A DNA stretch of 46,369 nt, taken from Candidatus Enterousia onthequi (lineage in GTDB: Bacteria; Pseudomonadota; Alphaproteobacteria; Rs-D84). Location of the stretch: positions 1 through 46,369 of the forward strand of contig JAGHVJ010000019.1 of the NCBI GenBank assembly GCA_018064365.1, written 5' to 3'. The translations under genes and the position numbers were made by a program. Numbering within the stretch: position 1 is the stretch's first letter; each line of letters opens with the position of its first letter. The notes under the pieces were generated by a model. The model was not told where the DNA came from. It did not search any database and worked only from the letters and a program-made list of their open reading frames with translations. This document shows, piece by piece, positions 13,462 through 26,731 of this stretch.

Positions 13462-14463
13462 GTGGATATCAAAATGAACGCAAATGATAGATTTTTGGAC
13501 CCGAATGTTCCGGATGAATTGGCGATTTCTATTCGCCCAAAGATTTTGAATGATTTTATCGGTCACGAATCGTTGAAACAAAATTTATCCGTGTTTATTG
13601 CGGGGGCTAAATCCAGAGCCGAGGCGATGGATCATGTTTTGCTATATGGACCTCCGGGGTTAGGAAAAACAACCTTGGCACATATAGTTGCAAATGAATT
13701 AGGAACGAATTTTCGCGCAACGGCGGCACCTATGTTGACCAAGCAAGGTGATTTGGCGGCTATTTTAACTGCGTTGGAACCTATGGATGTTTTGTTTATT
13801 GATGAAATTCATCGTTTGCCAACCGCGATAGAAGAAGTTTTGTATTCTGCGATGGAAGATTTTAAGTTGGATATTATGTTAGGTGAAGGGCCGTCTGCAA
13901 AAAGTGTTCGTATTGATTTGCCTCCTTTTACATTGGTTGGTGCAACCACACGTACGGGTTTGCTGTCTAATCCTTTGCGGGAAAGATTTGGAATTGATTT
14001 GCGATTGTCTTTTTATTCGGCGGATGAATTGGCTCGGATTATTATGCGCAGCGCACATATTTTGGGGATGGATATAGATAAAGATGGTGCGTTGATGTTG
14101 GCACGCGCGTCGCGTGGAACACCGCGTATTGCGAACAGGTTGTTAAAACGTGCACGTGATTTTGCAAATGCATTACATGCAGATGTTATTACGGCGGATA
14201 CTATTAAAACCACCCTGTTTCAATTACATATTGACGAATCCGGGTTGGATGCTGTCGATCGTGATTATATGATGACAATTATAAATCATTATGCAGGTGG
14301 TCCGGTTGGAATTGATAATTTGGCGGCGGCGTTAAGCGAACCGGCTGATACAATCGAAGATGTAATTGAACCTTATTTGATGCAATTAGGGTTTATTCAA
14401 CGCACACCTCGTGGACGTGTTGTGACCGATATGGGATATAAACACCTGGGATTGGAAAAATGA
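13462..14463 (+). CDS. ruvB: Holliday junction branch migration ATPase RuvB
   Basis: Walker [12 protein letters not shown], Walker [10 protein letters not shown], and the [14 protein letters not shown] sensor/arginine region. The start may be ATG 13474. Confidence 0.95.
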
Positions 14464-15170
14464 TGCGCAATTTCTTTGTTTTAATTGTTGGCATATTTAT
14501 TTTAGCCGGATGTGCAGGAACATCTGTGTATGAATACAAAATCAACACAAAGCCGTATACCATTGATGGTGTGACTTATTATCCGTTGGCATCGGCAAAT
14601 GGTTTTAGTGAAACTGGGATGGCATCGTGGTATGGACCGGATTTTCATGGTAGAAAAACAGCCAGCGGTGAAACTTATAATAAATATGCATTTACGGCGG
14701 CGCATAAAACTTTACCATTTGGCACACGTGTTCGTGTCACTAGTTTAGATACCAGGGCCAGTACAGAGGTTGTTATAAATGACCGTGGCCCGTTTAAATC
14801 TGGGCGCATAATTGATTTATCTTATTCTGCGGCCAAAGAAATTGGTATGATTGGGCATGGAACGGCACGTGTGCACATAAATGCGGTGGGTTCGGTAAAT
14901 AATTCAAATGCAAAAACAACAACTGTAAAACCTACAACAAATGCGGCAATTGGTACTGGTAATTATTATGTTCAGGTTGGAACGTATTCTGTACAAAACA
15001 ATGCAACCAAGGCCAGTCAGAATTTAAGCACAATGGGTTATGCAAATGTGGTAAAATCACAAAGTGGTAAATATGTTGTGCGTGCGGGGCCGTATAGTAC
15101 GCGTGCGCGCGCAACATCTGTGCGGGACAAATTACAAAAAAGTTATTCTGGGGCATTTATAGTGGAGTGA
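14460..15170 (+). CDS. rlpA: Septal ring lytic transglycosylase RlpA-family lipoprotein with a C-terminal SPOR domain
   Basis: Lipobox ILAGC. The DPBB core is [21 protein letters not shown]...FGTRVRVT...VINDRGPF. The SPOR-like tail is YYVQVGTYS...VRAGPY. It overlaps the ruvB stop (ATGA). Confidence 0.9.
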
Positions 15171-15174
15171 GTGA

Positions 15175-15810
15175 ATGACAACCGCAAAAAGATTAACAGA
15201 TTTTTTTTGTATAAGTGAAAAATTGGAAACTGAAAAACGCCTTACGCGGACATCAAGTGGTGACAATCAAGTTGTGGCGGCGCATTCTTGGAATATGGCA
15301 ATTATGGCTTTGGCGATAAACCCGTATTTAATCCATGTTGTTAATATGGAACGGGTATTAGAGTTATGCTTGTTGCATGATTTGCCAGAGGCGATTTCGC
15401 ATGATATTCCATTGCATGAACAGACAGAATCTATTAAAAAGCAAAAATATATAAATGAACAACATGCTGTTGACACTATAATGTCTTTATTACAGGACGA
15501 TTGGGTAAAAGCCAGATTTGATGAGTACGAGGCAAAGCAAACGCCCGAGGCACGGTTGGTTAAATTATTAGATGTGTTGGATACAGGAATTCAACATATG
15601 TGTGCCAAAGATTTGGTGTATGTGACAAAGTATGATAATGGTTTTTATTGGAAATTATTTTTTTCGAATAAATTTATGACCGGTTTCGATTATGAACCTG
15701 TGTTGCGTGAAATATATGATGAGATTCGTGGCCGTGTCGAAAAACGATTAATTAACGAACAAAATTTGGATATAAATAGATTTATTGATAGAGGTGAAAA
15801 TGACACATAA
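15175..15810 (+). CDS. HD-domain phosphohydrolase (YfbR-like 5'-nucleotidase family)
   Basis: H...HD...D pattern: AAHSWNMAI and LLHDLPEAISHDIP. Confidence 0.8.
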   Translation: MTTAKRLTDFFCISEKLETEKRLTRTSSGDNQVVAAHSWNMAIMALAINPYLIHVVNMERVLELCLLHDLPEAISHDIPLHEQTESIKKQKYINEQHAVDTIMSLLQDDWVKARFDEYEAKQTPEARLVKLLDVLDTGIQHMCAKDLVYVTKYDNGFYWKLFFSNKFMTGFDYEPVLREIYDEIRGRVEKRLINEQNLDINRFIDRGENDT

Positions 15811-16171
15811 ATTTAAATTTCAAATTGCGTATGCGGATACTGATGCCGGTGGGATTGCGTATCATGCGCGTTTTATAGAAATGGCAGAACGTGCCCGTAT
15901 GGATTGGTCGCGCGGCATCAAATATCCGGAAAATGATTTAGGGTTTGTTGTTCGGCAGTTGGATATTAAATACAGTGTGCCATTATTGGTGGGTGATGAT
16001 ATTATAATTGAAACCACGCCAATCAATATTGGTGCGGCATCTGTAAAAATTGAACAAAAGTTTTTACGTGATGGGGTAATTTGTGCTATAATGCATATAA
16101 CGATTGCTTACCTGGATAAAAATTTGCGTCCACGGGCAATCCCAGATTCAATTGTAAAGTTTTTTAAATAA
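15800..16171 (+). CDS. ybgC: Tol-Pal-associated acyl-CoA thioesterase YbgC (4HBT fold)
   Basis: YADTDAGGIAYHARFIEMAERAR motif. ATG 15800 with RBS AGAGGTGA is preferred over the track start at 15785. It lies directly upstream of tolQRA. Confidence 0.85.
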   Translation: MTHKFKFQIAYADTDAGGIAYHARFIEMAERARMDWSRGIKYPENDLGFVVRQLDIKYSVPLLVGDDIIIETTPINIGAASVKIEQKFLRDGVICAIMHITIAYLDKNLRPRAIPDSIVKFFK

Positions 16172-16195: not shown

Positions 16196-16687
16196 ATGAC
16201 AAATAATTTTTCATTATTGAATTTGTTTACTGGCGACATAATGACTGTATTTGTGTCGATTGTGTTGGTGGTTTTGAGTATTTTGTCTTGGGCGGTTATT
16301 ATTGAAAAGTATCGCGTATGGAAAATGGTAAAAAATAATCCGGTTAAAATAAAACCAAATGACAATCTGGATACGATAGTCGATAAATTGATACGCCCAT
16401 TTGATAAGAATTTGTGGTTTTTGTCGATGGTGTCTTATGTTTCACCTTTTATTGGTTTGTTTGGAACGGTTTGGGGGGTTATGGATTCTTTTGCATCAAT
16501 CGGAATCAATCAATCAGTTAGTATCAGTGTTATTGCCCCGGGATTGGCGACTGCGTTGGGGACAACTGCGTTGGGGTTGATTGCGGCAATTCCTGCGGCA
16601 ATAGCATACCAGTATTATGCAAAAAAATCTGATGATTTGTATAATCGTTTAGATGAAAATCGTATTGAATTAAAAGCGCAACATTAA
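16196..16687 (+). CDS. tolQ: TolQ (MotA/TolQ/ExbB proton channel), unusually short at 163 aa
   Basis: TM1 is FVSIVLVVLSILSWAVIIEK. The conserved TM2/TM3 block is SPFIGLFGTVWGVM...VIAPGLATALGTTALGLIAAIPAAIAY. Confidence 0.85.
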   Translation: MTNNFSLLNLFTGDIMTVFVSIVLVVLSILSWAVIIEKYRVWKMVKNNPVKIKPNDNLDTIVDKLIRPFDKNLWFLSMVSYVSPFIGLFGTVWGVMDSFASIGINQSVSISVIAPGLATALGTTALGLIAAIPAAIAYQYYAKKSDDLYNRLDENRIELKAQH

Positions 16688-16703
16688 ATTTTAAGGATTT
16701 GTG

Positions 16704-17108
16704 ATGCCAAGAAGAACAAGACGTTTTGATGCAGGAATATCGCTGACACCGATGATTGATATTATGACGACATTGTTGGCGGTGTTTATGGTGACGACCC
16801 CAATGATGACGGCTGGTATTGATTTAGAGTTGCCACGTGCAGGACATTCATCTATGACGGGTAATGATCATGCGATTCAGATTAGTGTGGATAGTGCTGG
16901 TCGATATTATTTGGCGCGCGACCAAATGAATTTGGATGATGTTGTGCGTCGTGCGGCGGCCATGCGGACAGAAAATCCTAATTTAACTATTATGATTAGC
17001 GGTGATGCGCGGGCTGATTATGGGGCGGTTATGCGTGCCATGGGACGGTTAAAGGATGCTGGATTTCAAAAGGTTGGATTAAAAACGCAAATTGATAATA
17101 GAAACTAA
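16704..17108 (+). CDS. tolR: TolR (ExbD/TolR family)
   Basis: ISLTPMIDIMTTLLAVFMV with the conserved Asp in the TM helix, plus a periplasmic domain. ATG 16704 has the RBS AAGGA. Confidence 0.85.
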   Translation: MPRRTRRFDAGISLTPMIDIMTTLLAVFMVTTPMMTAGIDLELPRAGHSSMTGNDHAIQISVDSAGRYYLARDQMNLDDVVRRAAAMRTENPNLTIMISGDARADYGAVMRAMGRLKDAGFQKVGLKTQIDNRN

Positions 17109-17863
17109 TGAAAAATCGTGCCAAACAATTTTATTCAGAAAATATTTTAATGTCTGTGATGGGGCATTTGGTGTTGATTGCGTTTATGATAACGTCTGTT
17201 GTGATATTTGTTGAACGCGCAGAAACGGTCGTGCCGGACCGTATTCAAATTATGGAAATTGATTTAAGTAATGTGAAAATTACTGGAAATGAAACTAAAT
17301 TGTATAATACGGATATTCCAAATGTAAAAACACCTGAAACACAAAAAAACAAAACTGATTCTGCATCTGTTCCGGAACATGTTGCCGCTGAAAAAGATAA
17401 AATCACGGATTCGCTTATCGATAATGATGACAACAAAAAAACGCAGAAATTGGCGGAAACAGATAAAAGAACAGATGTGTCTGAAATAAATGCGCCAAAA
17501 AAGAAAACTGTGGTGCGCGTAAATCGCGAAGTGTTATCACTGGACAGAACAATGACTGTTTCTGTGATTGACGCGCTGCGCGTGGCGATGACGCGTTGTT
17601 GGGTAATTGATAGCAGTCGTCCCGATTTATCAGATATTCGTGCGGTTGCGCATTTGAAGATGCGTCCCAACGGAACTGTTGCAGATGTTTGGTTTGAAAG
17701 TGCGGCGCGTGCCGAAACAGATGCAACATTTGCATATGTGTTGAATACAATTCGCGCGGCAATACAAACGTGTGAACCTTTGTCTATGCTGCCACGCAAT
17801 GAATATAATGCGTGGAAAGATATACAATTGACATTTTATCCTACGTCTGGGCGTGTTATGTAG
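17108..17863 (+). CDS. tolA: TolA-like cell envelope integrity protein
   Basis: Position after tolR with a 1-nt overlap. It has an N-terminal TM anchor, a K/D/E/T-rich linker and a C-terminal TolA/TonB-like domain (...RCWVIDSSRPDLSDIRAVAHLKMRPNGTV...). Confidence 0.65.
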   Translation: MKNRAKQFYSENILMSVMGHLVLIAFMITSVVIFVERAETVVPDRIQIMEIDLSNVKITGNETKLYNTDIPNVKTPETQKNKTDSASVPEHVAAEKDKITDSLIDNDDNKKTQKLAETDKRTDVSEINAPKKKTVVRVNREVLSLDRTMTVSVIDALRVAMTRCWVIDSSRPDLSDIRAVAHLKMRPNGTVADVWFESAARAETDATFAYVLNTIRAAIQTCEPLSMLPRNEYNAWKDIQLTFYPTSGRVM

Positions 17864-17975
17864 TTTTTTGTAAAAATTCAAAAATCTGTCAAATTTTTTT
17901 TGATAATTTTTTTAGTTTTTTTATTTGCGTATTTAGTAATAAATGTTCTATGCTTGTCAGAGAAGGTAGGAAAGT

Positions 17976-20900
17976 TTGAAAACTTTATTCCGTATTTTTA
18001 ATGTAATGTTTTTTTCTGCGGCATTAGTGTTTGCTGTGGTGCCAATGGCATTTGCGGCTGGTTCTTGTCCAGGTAGTTTTTTTGATTATGAAAATAAAGA
18101 GTGGATACAAGATTATACTTGTGAAGATGTTGGGCAAAATTTGATTGGAGAAGGTTTTGACCACAATGTACTGACCGATGGTTGTTCGTGTATGTGCGAT
18201 CCATTTGATGCTGCGTTTAATCCTGTGGCGGCTAATGCTTGTATAAAAGGTGAAATTGATGCGTGTGCAGATGTTTGTATTCCACTAGATCTGCCGTGTG
18301 ATTATGGCCAACGTCCATACGTCGTGGATGGCATTGCGCAATGTGGATATTATTTTGACCCAGAGTTTGGTTTGATAGATTATTATGGTAGTCAGAGATG
18401 GCGTGAATTTTTGGATGTTAATGGAATGTCTGCGGGTTATATGTCACCGACCGGTGAACTGTTGCCTTGTGATGGTGATGGAGTAAAAGAAGCTGGGGAT
18501 GGCACAGGTCGGTGTGTTTGTGCTGATGGTGGTTGGTTCTTGATGGATGGTGGTGTTTGTGTTCAAGAATTACCAGTGGATTTGATGTTGGACCCAGAAG
18601 GGACACAAAATTATGCTAATTTGAAGCTCGATTTTTGGCATAATCCGTTTAATTTAGCGAATGAAGGTTATGGTTTGCCGGATGGTGGTGCCGGGTTGAC
18701 ACTGGACCAGATTATGGACATGGTTAATGGTCAAGGCACACAAATGTTTGATCATCATGGCGAATGGACATATACCCCGATGGGTACTGGAACACAGTAT
18801 ATTTATAAATCTATCCCGTTGGTTGGTTATCCTGTGTATTCAGGAACGTCGGCACCTGTGGTTGTTAAAGTCAATTTAGATTTTCAGGGCGGAAATTCGA
18901 GTTGGTCTGAATTTTACTATGTTTATGGTCGTACTACGCCTGGGCCTTTTTTTAATAGTAGTAGTGTGCAGACTCCTATAAACAATTCTGTTATTAACAA
19001 ACCAACTCGTACAGGATATACTTTTGGTGGATATTACACCAGCACGAATGGAAATGGACAGCAATATGTTGATGAAAATGGTGTAATTAGTAACAATTTG
19101 GTCTATTACACAAGTACTACGCCCTTGACACTGTATGCGAAATGGACCCCGAATACATATACTATTAGTTATAATTTAAATAGTGGGACGCATGGGGCGA
19201 GCCATCCAACTTCTGCAACATATGACACATCTTTTACCGTGAGTAATCCTACGCGTTCCGGATATACATTTTCTGGTTGGAAAATCACAGGGATGGATAG
19301 CGTGACACATACGTATGGCAATAGTACCACCGCATCTAATTCAATTTCTTCAACAACTGCAACAACGTTTAAGAATCTTCGTTCAACCAGTGGGACTGTC
19401 ACATTTACAGCACAATGGACACAAAACATTCCTACGTGTTATCAGATTCATTTTGATAATGCTACTAATGGCGGTAGTGGTGGTACGACTGATATTTGGT
19501 TGTATAGAAATTCGAGTAATTTGAGTGATAGCAAAAATTGTAAAATTTATAGTGATAGTGCTTGTACTAATGTGATAACCAGTATAACCCCACCAACAAA
19601 ATTGAATGGATTTTATATTGGTCAGTATTCTGTAACAGGTGTAAATGCAGAAAGTCCTTATAATGAAGGTTGGTTCGATACAGGAGGCGGTTCACATATT
19701 GCTGAAGACAGAAATTATTGTAATAACACCACTAATACCAGCGGTTATTTCAATGATTTGGATTATACATATGGTTTTCAAGGAAATCAAAGCCCAGCGA
19801 TTACTTTGCGTGCACTGTTTGAGTGTACACCGGGTTATTATAATAATTCAGACAACAGATGTTTGGCCAATACCGTTGTATTAGATTGGCAAGAAAGTGG
19901 TGGAAACAGTATTCCTGATGGTTCATGTACGTATGGTGGAAATTTGGTTTTGCCATCGGCACCGTCACGTTCAGGCTATACTTTTACAGGCTGGCGGTTA
20001 GCAGATGGAACAATGGCAAATGCTGGTACAACAATAACTGGTGGATGTGTTGTTGGTTATACTAATGCATATAATGGGACATCGGCTGCTATTACTGCGC
20101 AATGGTCTCAAGGCACCTACACCGTATCGTTTAATGCTAATGGTGGAACCGGCGGACAATCGGCAAATGTATCTGCGACATATGGTTCAGCCATGCCGAC
20201 AATCAGTACAACCGCCCCAACCCGTACTGGATACACATTTGATGGTTGGTATGACAGTGTGAGTTTGCCGTCTGGATATAAGAAATTGGAATATATTGCA
20301 AAGAACAATGCGTCGCAATATATACAGACTGATTATGTTGGAAATTTGAATTCCAGATACGAAGGTGCTGTTCTTCTTACTAATAATACTGACGCTTATG
20401 ATATAGCAAGTCGTGTTAACGCCTCTGGCAATACAAGGAATATTGCGTTTGCATGTTCTGGCAGTACTTCTTATATCGGTTATGGAACGTATATTTCTGC
20501 TGCAACGAATAGACACCAGTGTGTTTTGAATGACAGAATGGATTTTGTGACGGATTATTTAAATAGACAGTGGTCTGTGTCTATTGGTAATTCAACAAGC
20601 ACAAAACAAATGTCTTCTGATGCGATAACCAGTTTTACAAATACAGCACCGTTACAAATATTTTTTAATCGTGTGGCTGGAGCCACCAGTACCGCCAGTT
20701 ATGCTGCGCCAATAGGTACCAGAATTTATTATTTGAAAATTTATGAAAATAATAATTTAGTTCATCATTTTGTTCCCGCTAAACGCAGTAGTGATAATGC
20801 GATTGGTGTCTATGATGTTGTAGAAAATGAATTTTTGACAAATGCTATTGCAAATACAGGTTCGTTTACTGCGGGACCGGAAACAAATCTTGAAGTAAAA

Positions 20901-23285
20901 TATTATAATGCAAATGGAACCAGTGCCAAAAATTGGGATAAAACCGCAAATACAACACTGTATGCACGTTGGACTGCAAAAACATATACAGTATCATTTA
21001 ATGCCAATGGGGGAACAGGTGGACAAACAGCAGATGTAACCGCGACATATGGGGCGGCAATGCCGACATTGGGGGCAAACTCGGCTCCGACACGTACAGG
21101 ATATTATCTTGTTGGATGGTATGATAAAAGTGATTATACCGCCAGTGGTGCAATGCAGTATTATAATGCAAATGGTACAAGTGCGCACAATTGGGATAAA
21201 ACCGCAAATACTACATTATATGCAGGATGGGATGGGATAAAGTATATGATAACTTTGGATGACGAGGCTAATGGCGGAACCAGTGGTTCTGGTAGTGTAA
21301 TACAAAAATATGCGTCAAGATGGACGACGAATGACAATGCCCAGACAACGATAACAAGTGTGAATATACCCAAAAGAACAAACAGTATATTTAATGGGTA
21401 TTATAGTGCAAAAACAAATGGCACTCAGCATATCCCTGCCACTGGTGTTTTACCAGCCAACACAACATTTACAGACGATACGACATTGTATGCGCAATTT
21501 AGCAGTTGCCAATGTTCTGCGGGAACGGGGGTAGATACGTGCACAACAAGTTCTACGACTTCTAATACATGTACGGCAACCGCAACGTGTAAAGTGGGTT
21601 ATGAAGAACCGGTTGCGTCATGTACTGGGGCGAATTGTACAAGTAGTTGTACACCGCAAAAGTATACGATATCAATAAAACCTAATGGTGGAAAAATAAA
21701 TGATTCTGTGAATAATTTCGAGTTTTATGAGTTATATAATACGGAATTTAGAGATTTGACCGGTACCAATGTCCTGACGGATATTCCGGTTGCTGTGCGT
21801 GATGGATATAGTTTGACAGGATATTTTACAGCAAGCACTGGCGGCACACTTAAGATTGGGTCAGACGGACTGTTGCCGGTACCATCGACTTTTATGGGGG
21901 ATACAACACTGTATGCCCAGTGGGCGCAAGATGTTATTACTTGTACAGCTGGAAACTATTTGCCGGCGAATTCCACATCGTGCGCCACATGTCCAGCCGG
22001 ATATTATTGTCCAAACACAGGCAATTATGTACAATCTTCATCAAACCAGGGAATTGTTTCTTGTGCGTCTGGAAAAATCACAGAAACGGCTGGGTCAACC
22101 AGTGCGTCGCAGTGTAAAAGTCCTGAGTTTAGCATGACGACAACATCGCTTGCGGCAGGGACTGTGTTTTCATTTACTATGTCTGCCCAGGGTAATTTTG
22201 TGATTGATTGGGGCGATGGTAATATTCAACAAATAACCCGTACAAATACAACCGACACTACATATTCGCACACATATACAACCGCCGGGACATATACCAT
22301 CGGCCTGTCTGGTCAGGCAACGGGATATAATACCAATACAGCGATCGCAGCGATTAGTTTTAGCGGTAATACAAATATTGCAGGGATATCTGGTTCTCTG
22401 GGTGCGGTATTTGGAACATTGTCGTCTGGTACAAACAAACAACCAAGATTTTATCAAACATTTGCTAACTGTAGTAATTTAACAGGTTCAATTCCATCAG
22501 GTTTGTTTAGTGGAATATCTGGTGCACCAGTTAATCAGTTGTTTGCTTACACGTTTGCTGATTGTAGTGGTTTAACAGGTTCAATCCCAGAAAATTTATT
22601 CAGTGGTGTATCTGGGCCATTAACTAATTATTTGTTCACTGGTACGTTTATGGGATGTAGCGGTTTAACCGGATTTGTACCACAAAATTTATTTGATGGT
22701 TTTACAAAAACAAGTGCTTCTGCCCCGATGTATCATGTGTTTAATGGTACTGGACTTGCCACAGCATGTCCAGCGGGATATTATCAATATATAACTGGGT
22801 TCGAGGCTGATTTTAACAGCAAAGTGGCGTGTACACCATGTCCGACTGGATATACATCTGGTGTTGGGGCAACAGCGAACACAGGGTGTTATTTAACGGT
22901 AGATGGTGGTCAGGTAAGAGACGGAACATCGGGAACAACATTATCAACCTGTGCAGCAGGAACATATAAAACATCGCACAATGAATATTATGGAACAAGT
23001 TATAGTTGTGATACATGTCCGACGACTAATCCGTACAGTCCCGCAGGGGCGGCGGATGCTGGGGCGTGTGGACGCAAGTTGCATATTGGGGATAATGTGA
23101 TGTATTTGCGTTCTACACAAAAGACAACACCTTCGTTAAAGTTCGATTTTAACAAGGATGGTGTGGCTGATTTGTTCGGAAATATGTCAACAAGTTCGAA
23201 AAAAATGTCCAGCGGTGTGGATAAATCTTTTAAAGTCAATTATGGTGGTCAAGTGTATTACATACACGATGATACTGTGCAATAA
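17976..23285 (+). CDS. Giant mosaic secreted/surface protein (1769 aa) combining Cys-rich N-terminus, Listeria/Bacteroides (InlB B-repeat/Flg_new-type) repeats, a nested jelly-roll-like domain, a PKD-like signature, BspA-like LRRs and ephrin-receptor/VSP-like Cys modules
   Basis: TTG start preceded by the RBS GAAGGTAGGA, with signal peptide MKTLFRIFNVMFFSAALVFAVVPMAFA. It contains repeated YTVSFNANGGTGGQ...APTRTGYTF.GWY...TLYA.W units. Other signatures are IDWGDG...YSHTYTTAGTYTI, FANCSNLTGSIPSGLFSG / FADCSGLTGSIPENLFSG / FMGCSGLTGFVPQNLF, and CATCPAGYYCP / CTPCPTGY. Confidence 0.9.
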   Translation: MKTLFRIFNVMFFSAALVFAVVPMAFAAGSCPGSFFDYENKEWIQDYTCEDVGQNLIGEGFDHNVLTDGCSCMCDPFDAAFNPVAANACIKGEIDACADVCIPLDLPCDYGQRPYVVDGIAQCGYYFDPEFGLIDYYGSQRWREFLDVNGMSAGYMSPTGELLPCDGDGVKEAGDGTGRCVCADGGWFLMDGGVCVQELPVDLMLDPEGTQNYANLKLDFWHNPFNLANEGYGLPDGGAGLTLDQIMDMVNGQGTQMFDHHGEWTYTPMGTGTQYIYKSIPLVGYPVYSGTSAPVVVKVNLDFQGGNSSWSEFYYVYGRTTPGPFFNSSSVQTPINNSVINKPTRTGYTFGGYYTSTNGNGQQYVDENGVISNNLVYYTSTTPLTLYAKWTPNTYTISYNLNSGTHGASHPTSATYDTSFTVSNPTRSGYTFSGWKITGMDSVTHTYGNSTTASNSISSTTATTFKNLRSTSGTVTFTAQWTQNIPTCYQIHFDNATNGGSGGTTDIWLYRNSSNLSDSKNCKIYSDSACTNVITSITPPTKLNGFYIGQYSVTGVNAESPYNEGWFDTGGGSHIAEDRNYCNNTTNTSGYFNDLDYTYGFQGNQSPAITLRALFECTPGYYNNSDNRCLANTVVLDWQESGGNSIPDGSCTYGGNLVLPSAPSRSGYTFTGWRLADGTMANAGTTITGGCVVGYTNAYNGTSAAITAQWSQGTYTVSFNANGGTGGQSANVSATYGSAMPTISTTAPTRTGYTFDGWYDSVSLPSGYKKLEYIAKNNASQYIQTDYVGNLNSRYEGAVLLTNNTDAYDIASRVNASGNTRNIAFACSGSTSYIGYGTYISAATNRHQCVLNDRMDFVTDYLNRQWSVSIGNSTSTKQMSSDAITSFTNTAPLQIFFNRVAGATSTASYAAPIGTRIYYLKIYENNNLVHHFVPAKRSSDNAIGVYDVVENEFLTNAIANTGSFTAGPETNLEVKYYNANGTSAKNWDKTANTTLYARWTAKTYTVSFNANGGTGGQTADVTATYGAAMPTLGANSAPTRTGYYLVGWYDKSDYTASGAMQYYNANGTSAHNWDKTANTTLYAGWDGIKYMITLDDEANGGTSGSGSVIQKYASRWTTNDNAQTTITSVNIPKRTNSIFNGYYSAKTNGTQHIPATGVLPANTTFTDDTTLYAQFSSCQCSAGTGVDTCTTSSTTSNTCTATATCKVGYEEPVASCTGANCTSSCTPQKYTISIKPNGGKINDSVNNFEFYELYNTEFRDLTGTNVLTDIPVAVRDGYSLTGYFTASTGGTLKIGSDGLLPVPSTFMGDTTLYAQWAQDVITCTAGNYLPANSTSCATCPAGYYCPNTGNYVQSSSNQGIVSCASGKITETAGSTSASQCKSPEFSMTTTSLAAGTVFSFTMSAQGNFVIDWGDGNIQQITRTNTTDTTYSHTYTTAGTYTIGLSGQATGYNTNTAIAAISFSGNTNIAGISGSLGAVFGTLSSGTNKQPRFYQTFANCSNLTGSIPSGLFSGISGAPVNQLFAYTFADCSGLTGSIPENLFSGVSGPLTNYLFTGTFMGCSGLTGFVPQNLFDGFTKTSASAPMYHVFNGTGLATACPAGYYQYITGFEADFNSKVACTPCPTGYTSGVGATANTGCYLTVDGGQVRDGTSGTTLSTCAAGTYKTSHNEYYGTSYSCDTCPTTNPYSPAGAADAGACGRKLHIGDNVMYLRSTQKTTPSLKFDFNKDGVADLFGNMSTSSKKMSSGVDKSFKVNYGGQVYYIHDDTVQ

Positions 23286-23307: not shown

Positions 23308-23337
23308 TACGCTCGATTTATGGGCGTACTTTTTTTA
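23308..23337. terminator. Putative bidirectional terminator (giant gene on plus, rnpB on minus)
   Basis: A 7-bp stem tacgctc/gggcgta with a 7-nt loop, followed by cttttttt. An A-run upstream provides a U-run on the other strand. Confidence 0.5.
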
Positions 23338-23371
23338 TAAAAAAAGTATCAAAATGATGCGGTAATGTCCG

Positions 23372-23767: not shown

Positions 23768-23992
23768 TTATTTCTTTGCGTTCGCGCCCATGTGACGTGC
23801 AGATTTTAATGCACTTTGCAAAGCACGCATCGCAATTTCACGAATTTTAGGCGCAAATGCACGCATATTCATATTATCTGCGACAGTATCCCCAATCAAT
23901 GTAGCGATATATTCCATCTGGGTTGGTGCAATGGTGTAAATTTCACTGGTTATTTCGGTCGTTTTTAATTGTGTGACAGGTTGTTCGTGCAT
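23768..23992 (-). CDS. Hypothetical small protein (74 aa)
   Basis: RBS AAGGTAGGA upstream of the ATG, with a basic helical C-terminus. I recognise no family, so the coding status is uncertain. Confidence 0.45.
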   Translation of the reverse strand: MHEQPVTQLKTTEITSEIYTIAPTQMEYIATLIGDTVADNMNMRAFAPKIREIAMRALQSALKSARHMGANAKK

Positions 23993-24127: not shown

Positions 24128-26731
24128 ATGAATATCGTTAAAATGTTGTTGGGTTCTGCAAATGACAGAATTGTAAAGTCTTATGATAAAACTGTATCAT
24201 TGATAAATGATTTAGAACCAAAGTATCACGCAATGAGTGATGATGAATTACGCACTCAGACAGATGTGTTGCGTCAGCGGTTGGCAAATGGCGAAAAAGA
24301 AAAGTCTGTGTTGCCTGATGCGTTCGCCGTTGTGCGCGAGGCTGCGATACGTTCTATTGGATTGCGTCATTTTAATGTCCAATTGATTGGTGGTATGGTG
24401 TTATCTAATGGTCAAATTGCAGAAATGAAAACCGGTGAAGGTAAAACTTTGGTTGCAACATTGGCTTTGTATTTAAAGGCTTTGCATGGTCGTGGCGCAC
24501 ATTTGATTACTGTGAACGATTATTTGGCTTCGCGTGATGCACAATGGATGGGTCAGGTTTATAAATTCTTGGGACTGTCTATTGGTATTATTCAGCATGA
24601 TATGTCTGATGAAGAACGTCGTGCTGCATACGCGTGTGATATTACTTATGTGACGAATTCCGAGTTAGGATTTGATTATCTGCGTGATAATATGAAATTC
24701 TTTAAAGAACAACAGGTTTTGCGGCCGTTATTTTATGCTATTGTTGACGAAGTCGATAGTATTTTAATTGACGAGGCTCGTACTCCGTTGATTATATCGG
24801 GGCCGTCCGAAGATGTTAGTGATTTATACAACAAAGTTGATGCGGTTGTTGCGCAATTTTCAGAATCTGATTTCAAGAAAGACGAAAAAGACAGACATGT
24901 GACATTGACTGAAAGCGGGGTTGATACGGCAACCAGGTTATTAAAAGACGCGGGGTTATTGGTTGGTGATAATTTGTATGCATCTGAAAATGCTGCGTTA
25001 GTTATGCATATTCAACAAGCGTTGTTGGCGCATCATCTGTATCAGAAAAATGTGAATTATGTTGTTCGCTCTGGCGAGATTTTGATTGTTGATGAATTTA
25101 CAGGACGTGTGATGACTGGGCGTCGTTTTGGTCGTGGATTGCATCAGGCGATTGAGGCCAAAGAACATGTGACTGTGCAACCAGAAAATCAAACTGTATC
25201 CAGTATTTCTTATCAGAATTTATTCCGTTTGTATGAAACATTGGCTGGTATGACGGGAACCGCTATGACCGAAGCGGCAGAATTCGAAGAAATTTATAAA
25301 TTGCGTGTGGTTTCTATTCCGACAAATCGTCCGGTTGCTCGCGTTGACCATCATGATGAAATCTATCGTAACAAGGCCGAAAAATACGATGCTATTTTAA
25401 AACAAATTACAGATTGTATGAATCGGAAACAGCCGGTTTTGGTTGGAACGGTATCTATTGAAAAATCAGAAGAATTGGCAGAGTTGGTTCGCAAAAAATT
25501 AAATATAAATCCGGCAGTCTTAAATGCAAAACAACACGAGTCCGAGGCCAAAATCGTCGCCCAGGCTGGCGCCCCAGGGGCCGTCACAATTGCAACAAAT
25601 ATGGCTGGGCGTGGAACAGATATTAAATTGGGTGGTAATGCAGAAGAACTGATTGCGGCATTAGATGAAACGGCACCTGATTTTGAAAAACGCAAGCAAG
25701 AAATTTATGACGAAATTGAAAAGAATAAAAAGTTGGTTTTGGATGCTGGTGGTTTGTATGTTATCGGCACAGAACGTCATGAATCACGTCGTATAGACAA
25801 CCAGTTGCGCGGTCGTTCTGGACGGCAAGGCGATCCGGGTGATTCTAAATTCTTTTTGGCATTGGACGATGATTTGATGCGTATTTTTGGTGCGTCAAGA
25901 TTGGATGGTATGCTGACAACATTGGGGTTAAAGACTGGCGAGGCTATTACACACCCATGGATTACCAAGGCATTAGAAAAAGCACAAAAACGTGTCGAGG
26001 CCCGGTATTTCGAAGCACGTAAAGAATTGCTAAAATACGACGATGTTATGAATGAACAGCGTGGTGTTATTTATAAACAACGCAACGATTTAATGACATC
26101 CAAAGATTTGTCTCCGTTGGCGCATGAATTGATTGGTGATGTTGTTGAAATGATTTGTGAAAACAATATTGCTGAAAAATCTCATCCGGCTGATTGGAAT
26201 ACGACTGGAATTCACGATAGTATGCTGCGTGTGTTTGCGTTGGATATTACCGATATAGAAAACTGGAAAACAGACGAGGAAATTACCGAACGCAAAGCAT
26301 ACGAATCTCTGTATAATTTGGCAATTCGTCGTTATAATCAACAGACCGAAAAATATGGTATCGAATTGATGCAAATGGCAACTCGGCAAATGATGTTGGG
26401 CGCGTTGGATACTGTGTGGAAACGACATTTACAGCAGATGGATTATTTACAGATGTCTATTGGGTTGCGTGGATACGCCCAGAAAAACCCGTTGTATGAA
26501 TACAAGCGCGAAGCATTGGAATTATTCCGTAATACAATAAATAATTTCAAAATTATGTCTGTGTCTTATATTTGCCGTATGGAACTGACTCGGGATGATG
26601 TGAATAAAACAAATGCAGAACGTGCCGCGCATGATGAGGCGTTAAATGGTGAAGCAAATATTCATCGTAATTCGCCCTGCCCGTGTGGTTCTGGATTAAA
26701 ATATAAAAACTGTCATGGCAAATTACATTAA
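24128..26731 (+). CDS. secA: Preprotein translocase ATPase SecA
   Basis: MKTGEGKTLVATL (Walker A), DEVDSILIDEARTPLIISG, TNMAGRGTDIKLGG, and the C-terminal zinc-binding CPCGSGLKYKNCHG. Confidence 0.97.
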   Translation: MNIVKMLLGSANDRIVKSYDKTVSLINDLEPKYHAMSDDELRTQTDVLRQRLANGEKEKSVLPDAFAVVREAAIRSIGLRHFNVQLIGGMVLSNGQIAEMKTGEGKTLVATLALYLKALHGRGAHLITVNDYLASRDAQWMGQVYKFLGLSIGIIQHDMSDEERRAAYACDITYVTNSELGFDYLRDNMKFFKEQQVLRPLFYAIVDEVDSILIDEARTPLIISGPSEDVSDLYNKVDAVVAQFSESDFKKDEKDRHVTLTESGVDTATRLLKDAGLLVGDNLYASENAALVMHIQQALLAHHLYQKNVNYVVRSGEILIVDEFTGRVMTGRRFGRGLHQAIEAKEHVTVQPENQTVSSISYQNLFRLYETLAGMTGTAMTEAAEFEEIYKLRVVSIPTNRPVARVDHHDEIYRNKAEKYDAILKQITDCMNRKQPVLVGTVSIEKSEELAELVRKKLNINPAVLNAKQHESEAKIVAQAGAPGAVTIATNMAGRGTDIKLGGNAEELIAALDETAPDFEKRKQEIYDEIEKNKKLVLDAGGLYVIGTERHESRRIDNQLRGRSGRQGDPGDSKFFLALDDDLMRIFGASRLDGMLTTLGLKTGEAITHPWITKALEKAQKRVEARYFEARKELLKYDDVMNEQRGVIYKQRNDLMTSKDLSPLAHELIGDVVEMICENNIAEKSHPADWNTTGIHDSMLRVFALDITDIENWKTDEEITERKAYESLYNLAIRRYNQQTEKYGIELMQMATRQMMLGALDTVWKRHLQQMDYLQMSIGLRGYAQKNPLYEYKREALELFRNTINNFKIMSVSYICRMELTRDDVNKTNAERAAHDEALNGEANIHRNSPCPCGSGLKYKNCHGKLH

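Follow-up and report, generated by a model that had tools for sequence, protein, structure and literature searches.

The open reading frame (ORF) of 1769 codons that lies between tolA and secA in a 46,369-nucleotide stretch of DNA from Candidatus Enterousia onthequi (the window; NCBI GenBank assembly GCA_018064365.1, contig JAGHVJ010000019.1, here C28) probably encodes a Sec-exported, disulfide-rich modular binding protein, likely a surface adhesin. The assembly comprised 884,736 bp in 37 contigs with 38.8% G+C, and homologues of the 1769-amino-acid (aa) protein carried the label 'MAG: Alphaproteobacteria bacterium'. Candidatus Enterousia are gut Alphaproteobacteria of the order Rs-D84 with genomes of about 0.9 Mb, no respiration and most standard transporters missing (PMC12306168). 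A diderm envelope was indicated by the Tol system, one BamA and OmpA-family proteins in the genome. A first-pass annotation, made from the sequence of the window, had read the protein as an adhesin; its exported, Cys-rich, multi-module make-up was indeed of adhesin type, surface location and adhesion themselves being inferred. In the mechanism proposed, eight Flg_new units and stiff Cys modules would form a stalk holding apart the parts with a putative binding role (the Cys-rich domain at the N-terminus, the domain nested within repeat 5, and a unit of PKD-like sandwich plus leucine-rich repeats (LRRs)), and a C-terminal end domain (the 'tail'), fused directly to the last Cys module, would dock the protein to an envelope component rather than act as an export signal. 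The route by which the outer membrane would be crossed is a conjectural part of this model. Variation would arise as entire modules are gained or lost in frame at short direct repeats, and through recombination tracts derived from related modules.

The ORF is intact and under purifying selection. Its frame was uninterrupted and, as the first-pass annotation had stated for the protein, began with a signal peptide, and a ribosome-binding-site-like sequence (AAGGTAGGA, at 17963-17971) was found 5-13 nt before the TTG start. Compared with a 2431-aa sister allele (P0268), the ratio of nonsynonymous to synonymous divergence (dN/dS) was 0.44 overall, 0 in the Cys2 segment and 0.09 in the tail, the most constrained of the variable parts of the gene. 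In four independent gut metagenomes, contigs spanned most of the gene at 90-99% identity and shared the junction of a 1.88-kb block that distinguishes the two alleles; the frame was kept in these contigs, with every indel a multiple of three, while LRR segments were replaced by +93 and -90 nt and one strain was divergent throughout 19420-20633. The possibility of a decaying pseudogene, which the first-pass annotation had named as a check on its reading, was rejected through the dN/dS values and the in-frame indels of the metagenome contigs.

Module families along the protein

As judged from sequence comparison, the module identities are direct for Flg_new and transitive, via homologues, for the PKD, ephrin-like and LRR modules. 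Flg_new (PF09479) scored 141 bits (cut-off 27; E 1e-41) in seven stretches of a whole-protein scan, an eighth unit (residues 1228-1316) appeared once its segment was scanned alone, and TIGR02543 reached 56.4 bits against a cut-off of 20.95. A custom hidden Markov model of the unit placed copies at residues 309-393, 394-479, 631-712, 713-~765 plus 973-1002, 1003-1089, 1105-1182 and 1246-1318, to which a divergent unit 3 is added. The count of seven or more such repeats in the first-pass annotation was thus sound, but the 210-aa domain nested in unit 5 had been overlooked. Its calls of PKD, ephrin-receptor and DUF285-type LRR modules stood through homologues in relatives that pass the respective models, while the 1769-aa protein itself fell below the cut-offs or gave no direct match. 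PKD PF00801 (20.3 bits, cut-off 23.5) and PF18911/PKD_4 (18.9 bits, cut-off 27) were both sub-threshold, and the homologous stretches of relatives passed PF00801/PF18911; Ephrin_rec_like (PF07699, cut-off 23.1) scored 19.4 bits in the first Cys module and 21.6 in the second set, and 54.9 and 74.9 bits in homologous Cys modules of relatives. DUF285 (PF03382) and LRR_5 (PF13306) had no direct match at E<=10 in the protein; residues 1470-1590 were, however, 40-45% identical (E 1e-12 to 1e-18) to stretches that pass PF03382 in P0011 and P0065 and PF13306 in P0004. The LRR stretch of P0069 was below the PF13306 cut-off (21.2 vs 27.7).

An AlphaFold2 model of residues 1290-1769 (480 aa), built from a 20-sequence alignment, had a predicted local distance difference test score (pLDDT) above 90 over residues 1319-1640, above 85 in the ephrin-like module and above 90 in the PKD-like module, which was all-beta. 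Foldseek searches with this 480-aa model, a poor query owing to its several domains, returned weak local matches at best (PKD 4xed with a probability of 0.92 but an E-value of 0.38; thyroglobulin and Elapor1 on the Cys module) and none for the LRR part. The second Cys set gave weak profile matches to TNFR and to an ephrin-receptor-like mastigoneme protein, and weak Foldseek matches to the Cys-rich domains of TNFR and CaSR. Ephrin-type Cys modules were present in 50 of the 120 homologues listed, and the LRR units always followed a PKD-like sandwich and preceded Cys modules. The N-terminal Cys-rich region reported by the first-pass annotation was recovered, with 14 of the protein's 49 Cys in residues 28-200; a search with residues 28-300 against 5.8 billion proteins found nothing beyond the protein's own cluster, and PHROGs had no match for the N-domain either. 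This N-domain was 31-32% identical to the slot protein of G018, and a paralogous copy lay inside the extra block of P0268. In P0268 the residues after the same signal peptide are AG-LPDG, without a Cys, and this favours cleavage by signal peptidase I.

Flg_new units 5 and 6 were near-duplicates (70% identity over 54 aa, 82% over 17 aa), the 8-aa loop SDYTASGA of unit 6 corresponding in unit 5 to 210 aa, from LPSGYKKLEYI to GSFTAGP. When this nested domain was compared with the genome by tblastn, copies were found on 13 contigs at 25-31% identity over about 215 aa (E down to 7e-19), and these matches were the central, variable core of about 18 paralogous secreted genes of the same 0.88-Mb genome. 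An alignment of the insert with 14 family members (A3) had 14 invariant columns, and the family frame around the variable core (LP.GY.ELEYIE...IPA.R.SD...GMYD......F.N.G.G.F..GP) was present in the insert. The insert consisted of the core domain alone: the signal peptide and the coiled-coil/Cys C-terminal module of the family were not in it, and its flanks were the halves of an Flg_new unit. In other large relatives, domains of this type were flanked by Cys modules or stood behind the tail, and in no case lay within an Flg_new unit. A profile search found no PDB match for the family, and the insert had no match in PHROGs. The secreted paralogues themselves shared a near-identical leader/signal peptide, a variable core of about 200 aa and a highly conserved C-terminal module (IKIATTKMVDEEF...QTRPDESCPANMKCLLVQDEDGTPHWYPIIEP); copies were found, for example, at C18:1-963, C17:1-963, C13:48-1580, C22:57429-61127, C10:43274-44329 and C12:2-1003. 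Many copies lay at contig ends, so that the family breaks the assembly, and some cores held additional inserted domains.

The same modules recurred in differing order and number across hundreds of relatives. The G+C content across the ORF (0.39-0.43) matched that of the neighbouring genes and the rest of the window, and a foreign origin by composition was rejected. Since the G+C content is like that of the neighbours and all close relatives of the modules come from the same gut alphaproteobacterial lineage, exchange within the lineage is indicated. Of the first-pass proposal that the protein is a mosaic of horizontally circulating modules, the mosaic and the exchange (within the lineage) held up, but import from Gram-positive bacteria or eukaryotes did not. 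Nor was the size, which had been called unusual for a Gram-negative with a compact genome, out of the ordinary for this group: ORFs of 2000-6000 aa of this modular kind were common in the genus. This genome had exactly one Flg_new/PKD/LRR/tail protein.

The 72-residue end domain

The C-terminal residues that the first-pass annotation could not place, and for which it had suggested a profile search, formed a shared module with a confidently predicted fold. The tail (residues 1698-1769) had no match in Pfam, NCBIfam or PHROGs. A model of residues 1651-1769 (Cys module plus tail), built from a 30-sequence alignment, had a pLDDT of 93.3 and a predicted template modelling score (pTM) of 0.81, and showed the tail as six short strands that follow the Cys module; Foldseek comparison of this model with PDB and BFVD gave nothing at E<=0.001, and the weak matches were confined to the Cys part. 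The domain was polar and the protein ended in DDTVQ; a membrane barrel was rejected because the strands are short (4-6 residues) and polar and there is no aromatic terminus.

Among the 120 large homologues listed by BLAST, 23-26 had the tail, and of the 26 tail segments recovered all were within 10 residues of the C-terminus except that of P0011 (P0030 gave the same segment). In a representative set of 1.84 billion proteins, the tail matched 307 proteins at E<=1e-3, mostly at the C-terminus: among the best 149 of these, no more than 5 residues separated the tail from the end of the protein in 101 and no more than 15 in 122, and 26 carried one further domain after the tail (of about 132 aa, or a variable-core copy of about 190-210 aa). 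Carriers ranged from 70 to 6644 aa with unrelated interiors, and included small secreted proteins of 190-260 aa in which the signal peptide and a stretch of about 60 aa lead to a single Cys module with the tail at the end. In an alignment of tails (A2), the domain followed a Cys module ending in C-G-[RHK]-x-[LFM]-[HRY]. Of the 121 genomes in the genus, 106 had the tail, in 1-13 copies (1-5 carriers in most genomes, one copy in this genome), and within the order it was limited to this bacterial family (6 of 26 genera).

Two tail subtypes could be distinguished at columns ~121-131 of A2. One, with a calcium-site-like loop D.N.DG.(A/P)(D/E), included this protein, that of G267 and the small proteins; the other (VKVG..xFYGN) was three residues shorter. 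The sequence DFNKDGVAD was rejected as an FG-GAP or Ca-binding signature, the loop being a 3-residue insertion of one subtype and not a defining part of the domain. The domain of about 132 aa that followed the tail in about 14 of the 149 representatives contained Cys (G.CWC.(I/M)T...W...C...C..FC...FR.AL) and was found, for example, in P0122, P0175, P0195 and the G003 slot protein (L017 1937-6400); the same domain also ended other secreted proteins in the genus (L013 5155-6822, L014 4375-6393, C22 57429-59336).

A variable slot between tolA and secA

The 90% cluster of the 1769-aa protein included P0268 (MCQ2580802.1, 'InlB B-repeat-containing protein'), which was also encoded between tolA and secA and was about 97% identical over the shared part. 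Right after the signal peptide P0268 had an additional 630 aa, with a variable-core domain at the very N-terminus, then another copy of the Cys-rich N-domain and a pair of Flg_new units; it also had a fourth LRR unit, one more than the 1769-aa protein. The 1.88-kb block was flanked by the direct repeat GCTGGTT in the long allele and one copy was kept in the window, so that the short allele resembles a precise in-frame deletion; the opposite direction, with a gain of the block in the long allele, may also apply. Synonymous divergence between the alleles was patchy (0 to 0.37): it was 0 in Flg4, Flg5a, Flg8 and Eph1, within 0-0.014 in the nested domain, and higher in Flg5b-6 and the tail (0.14), in PKD (0.19) and in the LRR segment (0.37). 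This mosaic pattern points to recombination tracts.

The slot was surveyed in relatives by locating tolA and reading the following gene, and, in a further comparison, tolA and tail coordinates were matched in 24 genomes. The tolA-secA interval was empty in G004 and G007, and elsewhere held genes of 358 (G002), 460 (G013), 751 (G267), 1404 (G018), 1487 (G003), 2274 (G014), 3256 (G006) and 4353 aa (G001), beside the 1769 aa of this genome and the 2431 aa of the sister allele. Most slot proteins started with a signal peptide and a Cys module and ended with the Cys-module-plus-tail unit, their interiors being alike in module types alone. A tail-bearing gene occupied the slot in about 15 of the 28 genomes checked, and directly adjoined tolA in G059, G104, G084, G082, G105, G047 and G240, the last of which belongs to another genus. 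In several genomes with a single copy the slot gene was the sole tail gene; the tail-bearing gene therefore probably had its ancestral position in this slot. The small tail proteins were rejected as the ancestral slot gene, as they lie in other contexts in relatives.

The ORF lay 112 bp from the tolA-like gene, with an AT-rich upstream region and a terminator of its own (Table 1). Upstream of tolQ the window contained ruvB, an RlpA-like DPBB-SPOR gene, an HD hydrolase gene and a YbgC-like thioesterase gene. The last three formed a block (14460-16171) between ruvB and tolQ that was missing from the sister strain, in which the ruvB-tolQ gap was 84 bp (L029 2137-2221) and the slot gene was about 97% identical. 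In the 843-bp gap between the 1769-aa gene and secA, an ORF of 74 aa without an assigned family was located on the opposite strand (23768-23992, -), and gene calling in the sister strain returned it too (L029 11777-12001, -). The Tol-Pal genes were dispersed, with tolQRA in the window, tolB on C13 (C13:4483-4800) and five OmpA-family genes on C7, C17 and C25, a departure from the usual arrangement in a single tolQRA-tolB-pal cluster.

Table 1. Positions in the window of the slot gene, the modules of its product and the bordering features
Feature	Residues	Position	Strand	Remarks
tolQ (MotA_ExbB), tolR (ExbD), tolA-like		16196..17863	+	upstream neighbours
Whole slot gene	1-1769	17976..23285	+	1769 codons plus stop, TTG start, stop-free frame
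Sec signal peptide	1-27	17976..18056	+	MKTLFRIF...PMAFA|AG; read from sequence
Junction of extra 1.88-kb (630-aa) block		18055..18063	+	GCTGGTT direct repeat (7 bp)
N-terminal Cys-rich domain	28-200	18057..18575	+	14 Cys; no Pfam match
Intervening region	201-295	18576..18860	+	no family match
Flg_new units 1-4 and N-terminal half of unit 5	296-761	18861..20258	+	unit 3 divergent, with Cys
Nested 210-aa domain	762-971	20259..20888	+	LPSGYKKLEYI...GSFTAGP
C-terminal half of unit 5 and Flg_new units 6 and 7	972-1176	20889..21503	+	
Cys-rich linker	1177-1227	21504..21656	+	8 Cys
Flg_new unit 8	1228-1316	21657..21923	+	segment scan
Ephrin-receptor-like Cys module	1317-1381	21924..22118	+	
PKD-like beta-sandwich	1382-1455	22119..22340	+	
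DUF285/BspA-type LRR	1456-1590	22341..22745	+	three canonical ~31-aa units plus degenerate flanks
Second ephrin-receptor/TNFR-like Cys set	1591-1697	22746..23066	+	
All-beta end domain (tail)	1698-1769	23067..23282	+	72 aa
Terminator-like hairpin and T-run		23308..23338	+	3' of the ORF
secA		24128..26731	+	conserved far border of the variable slot; dnaE also downstream

Export, alternative explanations and known systems

In the 1769-aa protein, the Pfam scan revealed no autotransporter or trimeric-autotransporter barrel, no YadA-type anchor and no RTX (HemolysinCabind) match, and no membrane-spanning segment, lipobox or barrel was found. Por_Secre_tail (TIGR04183) had no match in the protein; PorK, PorL, PorM, PorN and Sov were not searched for in the genome. 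The genome has a single Omp85 and hence no two-partner transporter, and the N-terminal signal peptide disfavours type I secretion. A lipoprotein secretin, the sole secretin in the genome, was encoded beside a TcpQ-like gene on C32 (230-2749, -), and C17:5734-10521 (+) encoded a PilO-like protein, a coiled-coil protein, a T2SSE ATPase and a T2SSF platform protein; the genes on the two contigs together resemble a type IVb-pilus-like set split over contigs. A VirB11-like ATPase was encoded on C22. Secretin-bearing type IVb pilus systems are known to release colonisation factors in soluble form, as with TcpF in Vibrio cholerae.

Several results count against a tail-docked surface adhesin. No known pathway for the export or anchoring of diderm adhesins turned up, and the secretin was present as a single copy in 28 of 28 congeneric genomes, with or without the tail, so that this comparison was non-discriminating and gave no link between secretin and tail. 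Being followed by another domain in 17% of the representatives and missing from 15 of 121 genomes, the tail is neither strictly terminal nor essential. Metatranscriptomes X28, X30 and X33 yielded zero reads even on secA and tolQ; the organism was thus absent from them, and they are uninformative on expression. We nevertheless favour the exported binding protein, and offer, as a speculation with perhaps one chance in several of being right, an extension of it in which the tail would be the tag by which an undescribed pathway for surface display or retention recognises its cargo in this genome-reduced alphaproteobacterial family: a receptor in the envelope would capture all tagged proteins, and the ancestral cargo beside tolQRA would be the main, rapidly re-tooled organ of attachment to the host surface or a partner cell. 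Reading of the tag could involve a receptor linked to the Tol system, the conserved PilN-type secretin or a type IV secretion system core.

The most serious competitor, although an unlikely one, is a released, soluble, multivalent lectin or effector, the tail of which would be a ligand-binding or oligomerisation domain and not an anchor. In its favour, the protein lacks a membrane-spanning segment, lipobox and barrel, the tail-bearing proteins of 190-260 aa look more like soluble factors than anchors, and the secretin-containing type IVb-pilus-like set would offer a release route of the TcpF type. Against it, the marked preference of the tail for the C-terminus in carriers of 80-6600 aa with unrelated interiors fits shared handling or docking better than ligand binding, and in a gene that otherwise diversifies no variable part is better conserved than the tail. 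The position of the gene after tolQRA could be explained if the product were an envelope protein tied to the Tol system, its tail binding TolA, TolB or peptidoglycan, and this would agree with the mere 112 bp to tolA, with the tail gene that stands right after tolA in roughly every second genome checked, a second genus included, and with the relocation of the canonical partners (tolB to C13, OmpA-family genes to other contigs). We regard such a tie as improbable: the slot was empty in G004 and G007, tail genes lay elsewhere in many genomes, the slot gene had its own AT-rich upstream region and terminator, and neither binding modules of extracellular type nor huge length variation is expected of a periplasmic structural partner.

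Still less probable is an outer-membrane lipoprotein, lipidated at the N-terminus because the deletion junction created a lipobox-like AAGS|C in the short allele. FAAGSC with Cys31, K2 and R6 of this allele fits the permissive PROSITE-type lipoprotein pattern, but position -3 is Ala and not Leu, Val or Ile, the same signal peptide precedes AG-LPDG without Cys in the 2431-aa allele, and Cys31 is part of the Cys-rich domain, internal in the long allele. That the ORF is a decaying or non-functional remnant is very hard to sustain. An N-terminal block is missing relative to the sister strain; a 5.3-kb open frame with ribosome-binding site and terminator, the dN/dS of 0.44 for the whole gene, 0.09 for the tail and 0 for Cys2, and indels that are all in frame, both between strains and in the independent contigs, oppose this explanation.

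Bacteria of this lineage, with genomes of about 0.9 Mb, probably depend on contact with the host surface or other cells, and with a single Flg_new/PKD/LRR/tail protein in the genome, the slot gene is a prime candidate for that contact. A minimal genome would here keep its binding repertoire flexible by means of a fixed slot, conserved ends and an interchangeable interior, one domain of which was taken from a variable family with many copies. The end domain offers an entry to how giant proteins may be displayed by a diderm that showed no signature of type V or type IX secretion. Giant modular adhesins are an already known kind of protein, and the sister allele had already been named for its Flg_new repeats; what is new is the undescribed end domain, the nesting of a domain in an Flg_new loop, the hypervariability of the slot between tolA and secA, and that no recognised display pathway turned up.

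The slot protein resembles known Flg_new/InlB B-repeat (PF09479) proteins in its eight strong units, which may likewise serve as spacer or stalk, and MCQ2580802.1 was so named by NCBI; it differs from them in belonging to a diderm alphaproteobacterium, in having no LPXTG, GW or other Gram-positive anchor, in the 210-aa domain within a loop and in the interleaved Cys modules. With the BspA/DUF285 LRR proteins (Tannerella forsythia BspA, Mycoplasma) it shares units of about 31 aa of the form F..CS.LTG.IP..LF.G, but here there was no direct Pfam match, 3-4 units were present, and a PKD-like sandwich always stood before and Cys modules after them; the C-terminal domain of the type IX secretion system (T9SS) that BspA has was lacking here. 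That T9SS domain (Por_Secre_tail, TIGR04183) of Bacteroidota cargo is, like the tail, a small all-beta domain (about 70-80 aa) with which many otherwise unrelated exported proteins of a single lineage end. The tail, however, had no sequence match to it, comes from a different phylum, was followed by a domain in 17% of cases, had mostly 1-5 cargo proteins per genome and is always welded to a CGR-ending Cys module. Eukaryotic ephrin-receptor-like, GCC2_GCC3 and TNFR modules (PF07699, PF07562) have the same CxxC..GYY spacing, with sub-threshold Pfam scores and weak TNFR, CaSR, Elapor1 and mastigoneme matches; the modules here, in contrast, are bacterial and abundant across the lineage, and nothing suggests a recent acquisition from eukaryotes. 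As in variable giant adhesins, modules were gained and lost in frame between close strains and recombination tracts were indicated, but here the variation concerned heterogeneous domains instead of one tandem repeat, and was concentrated in a fixed slot between tolA and secA.

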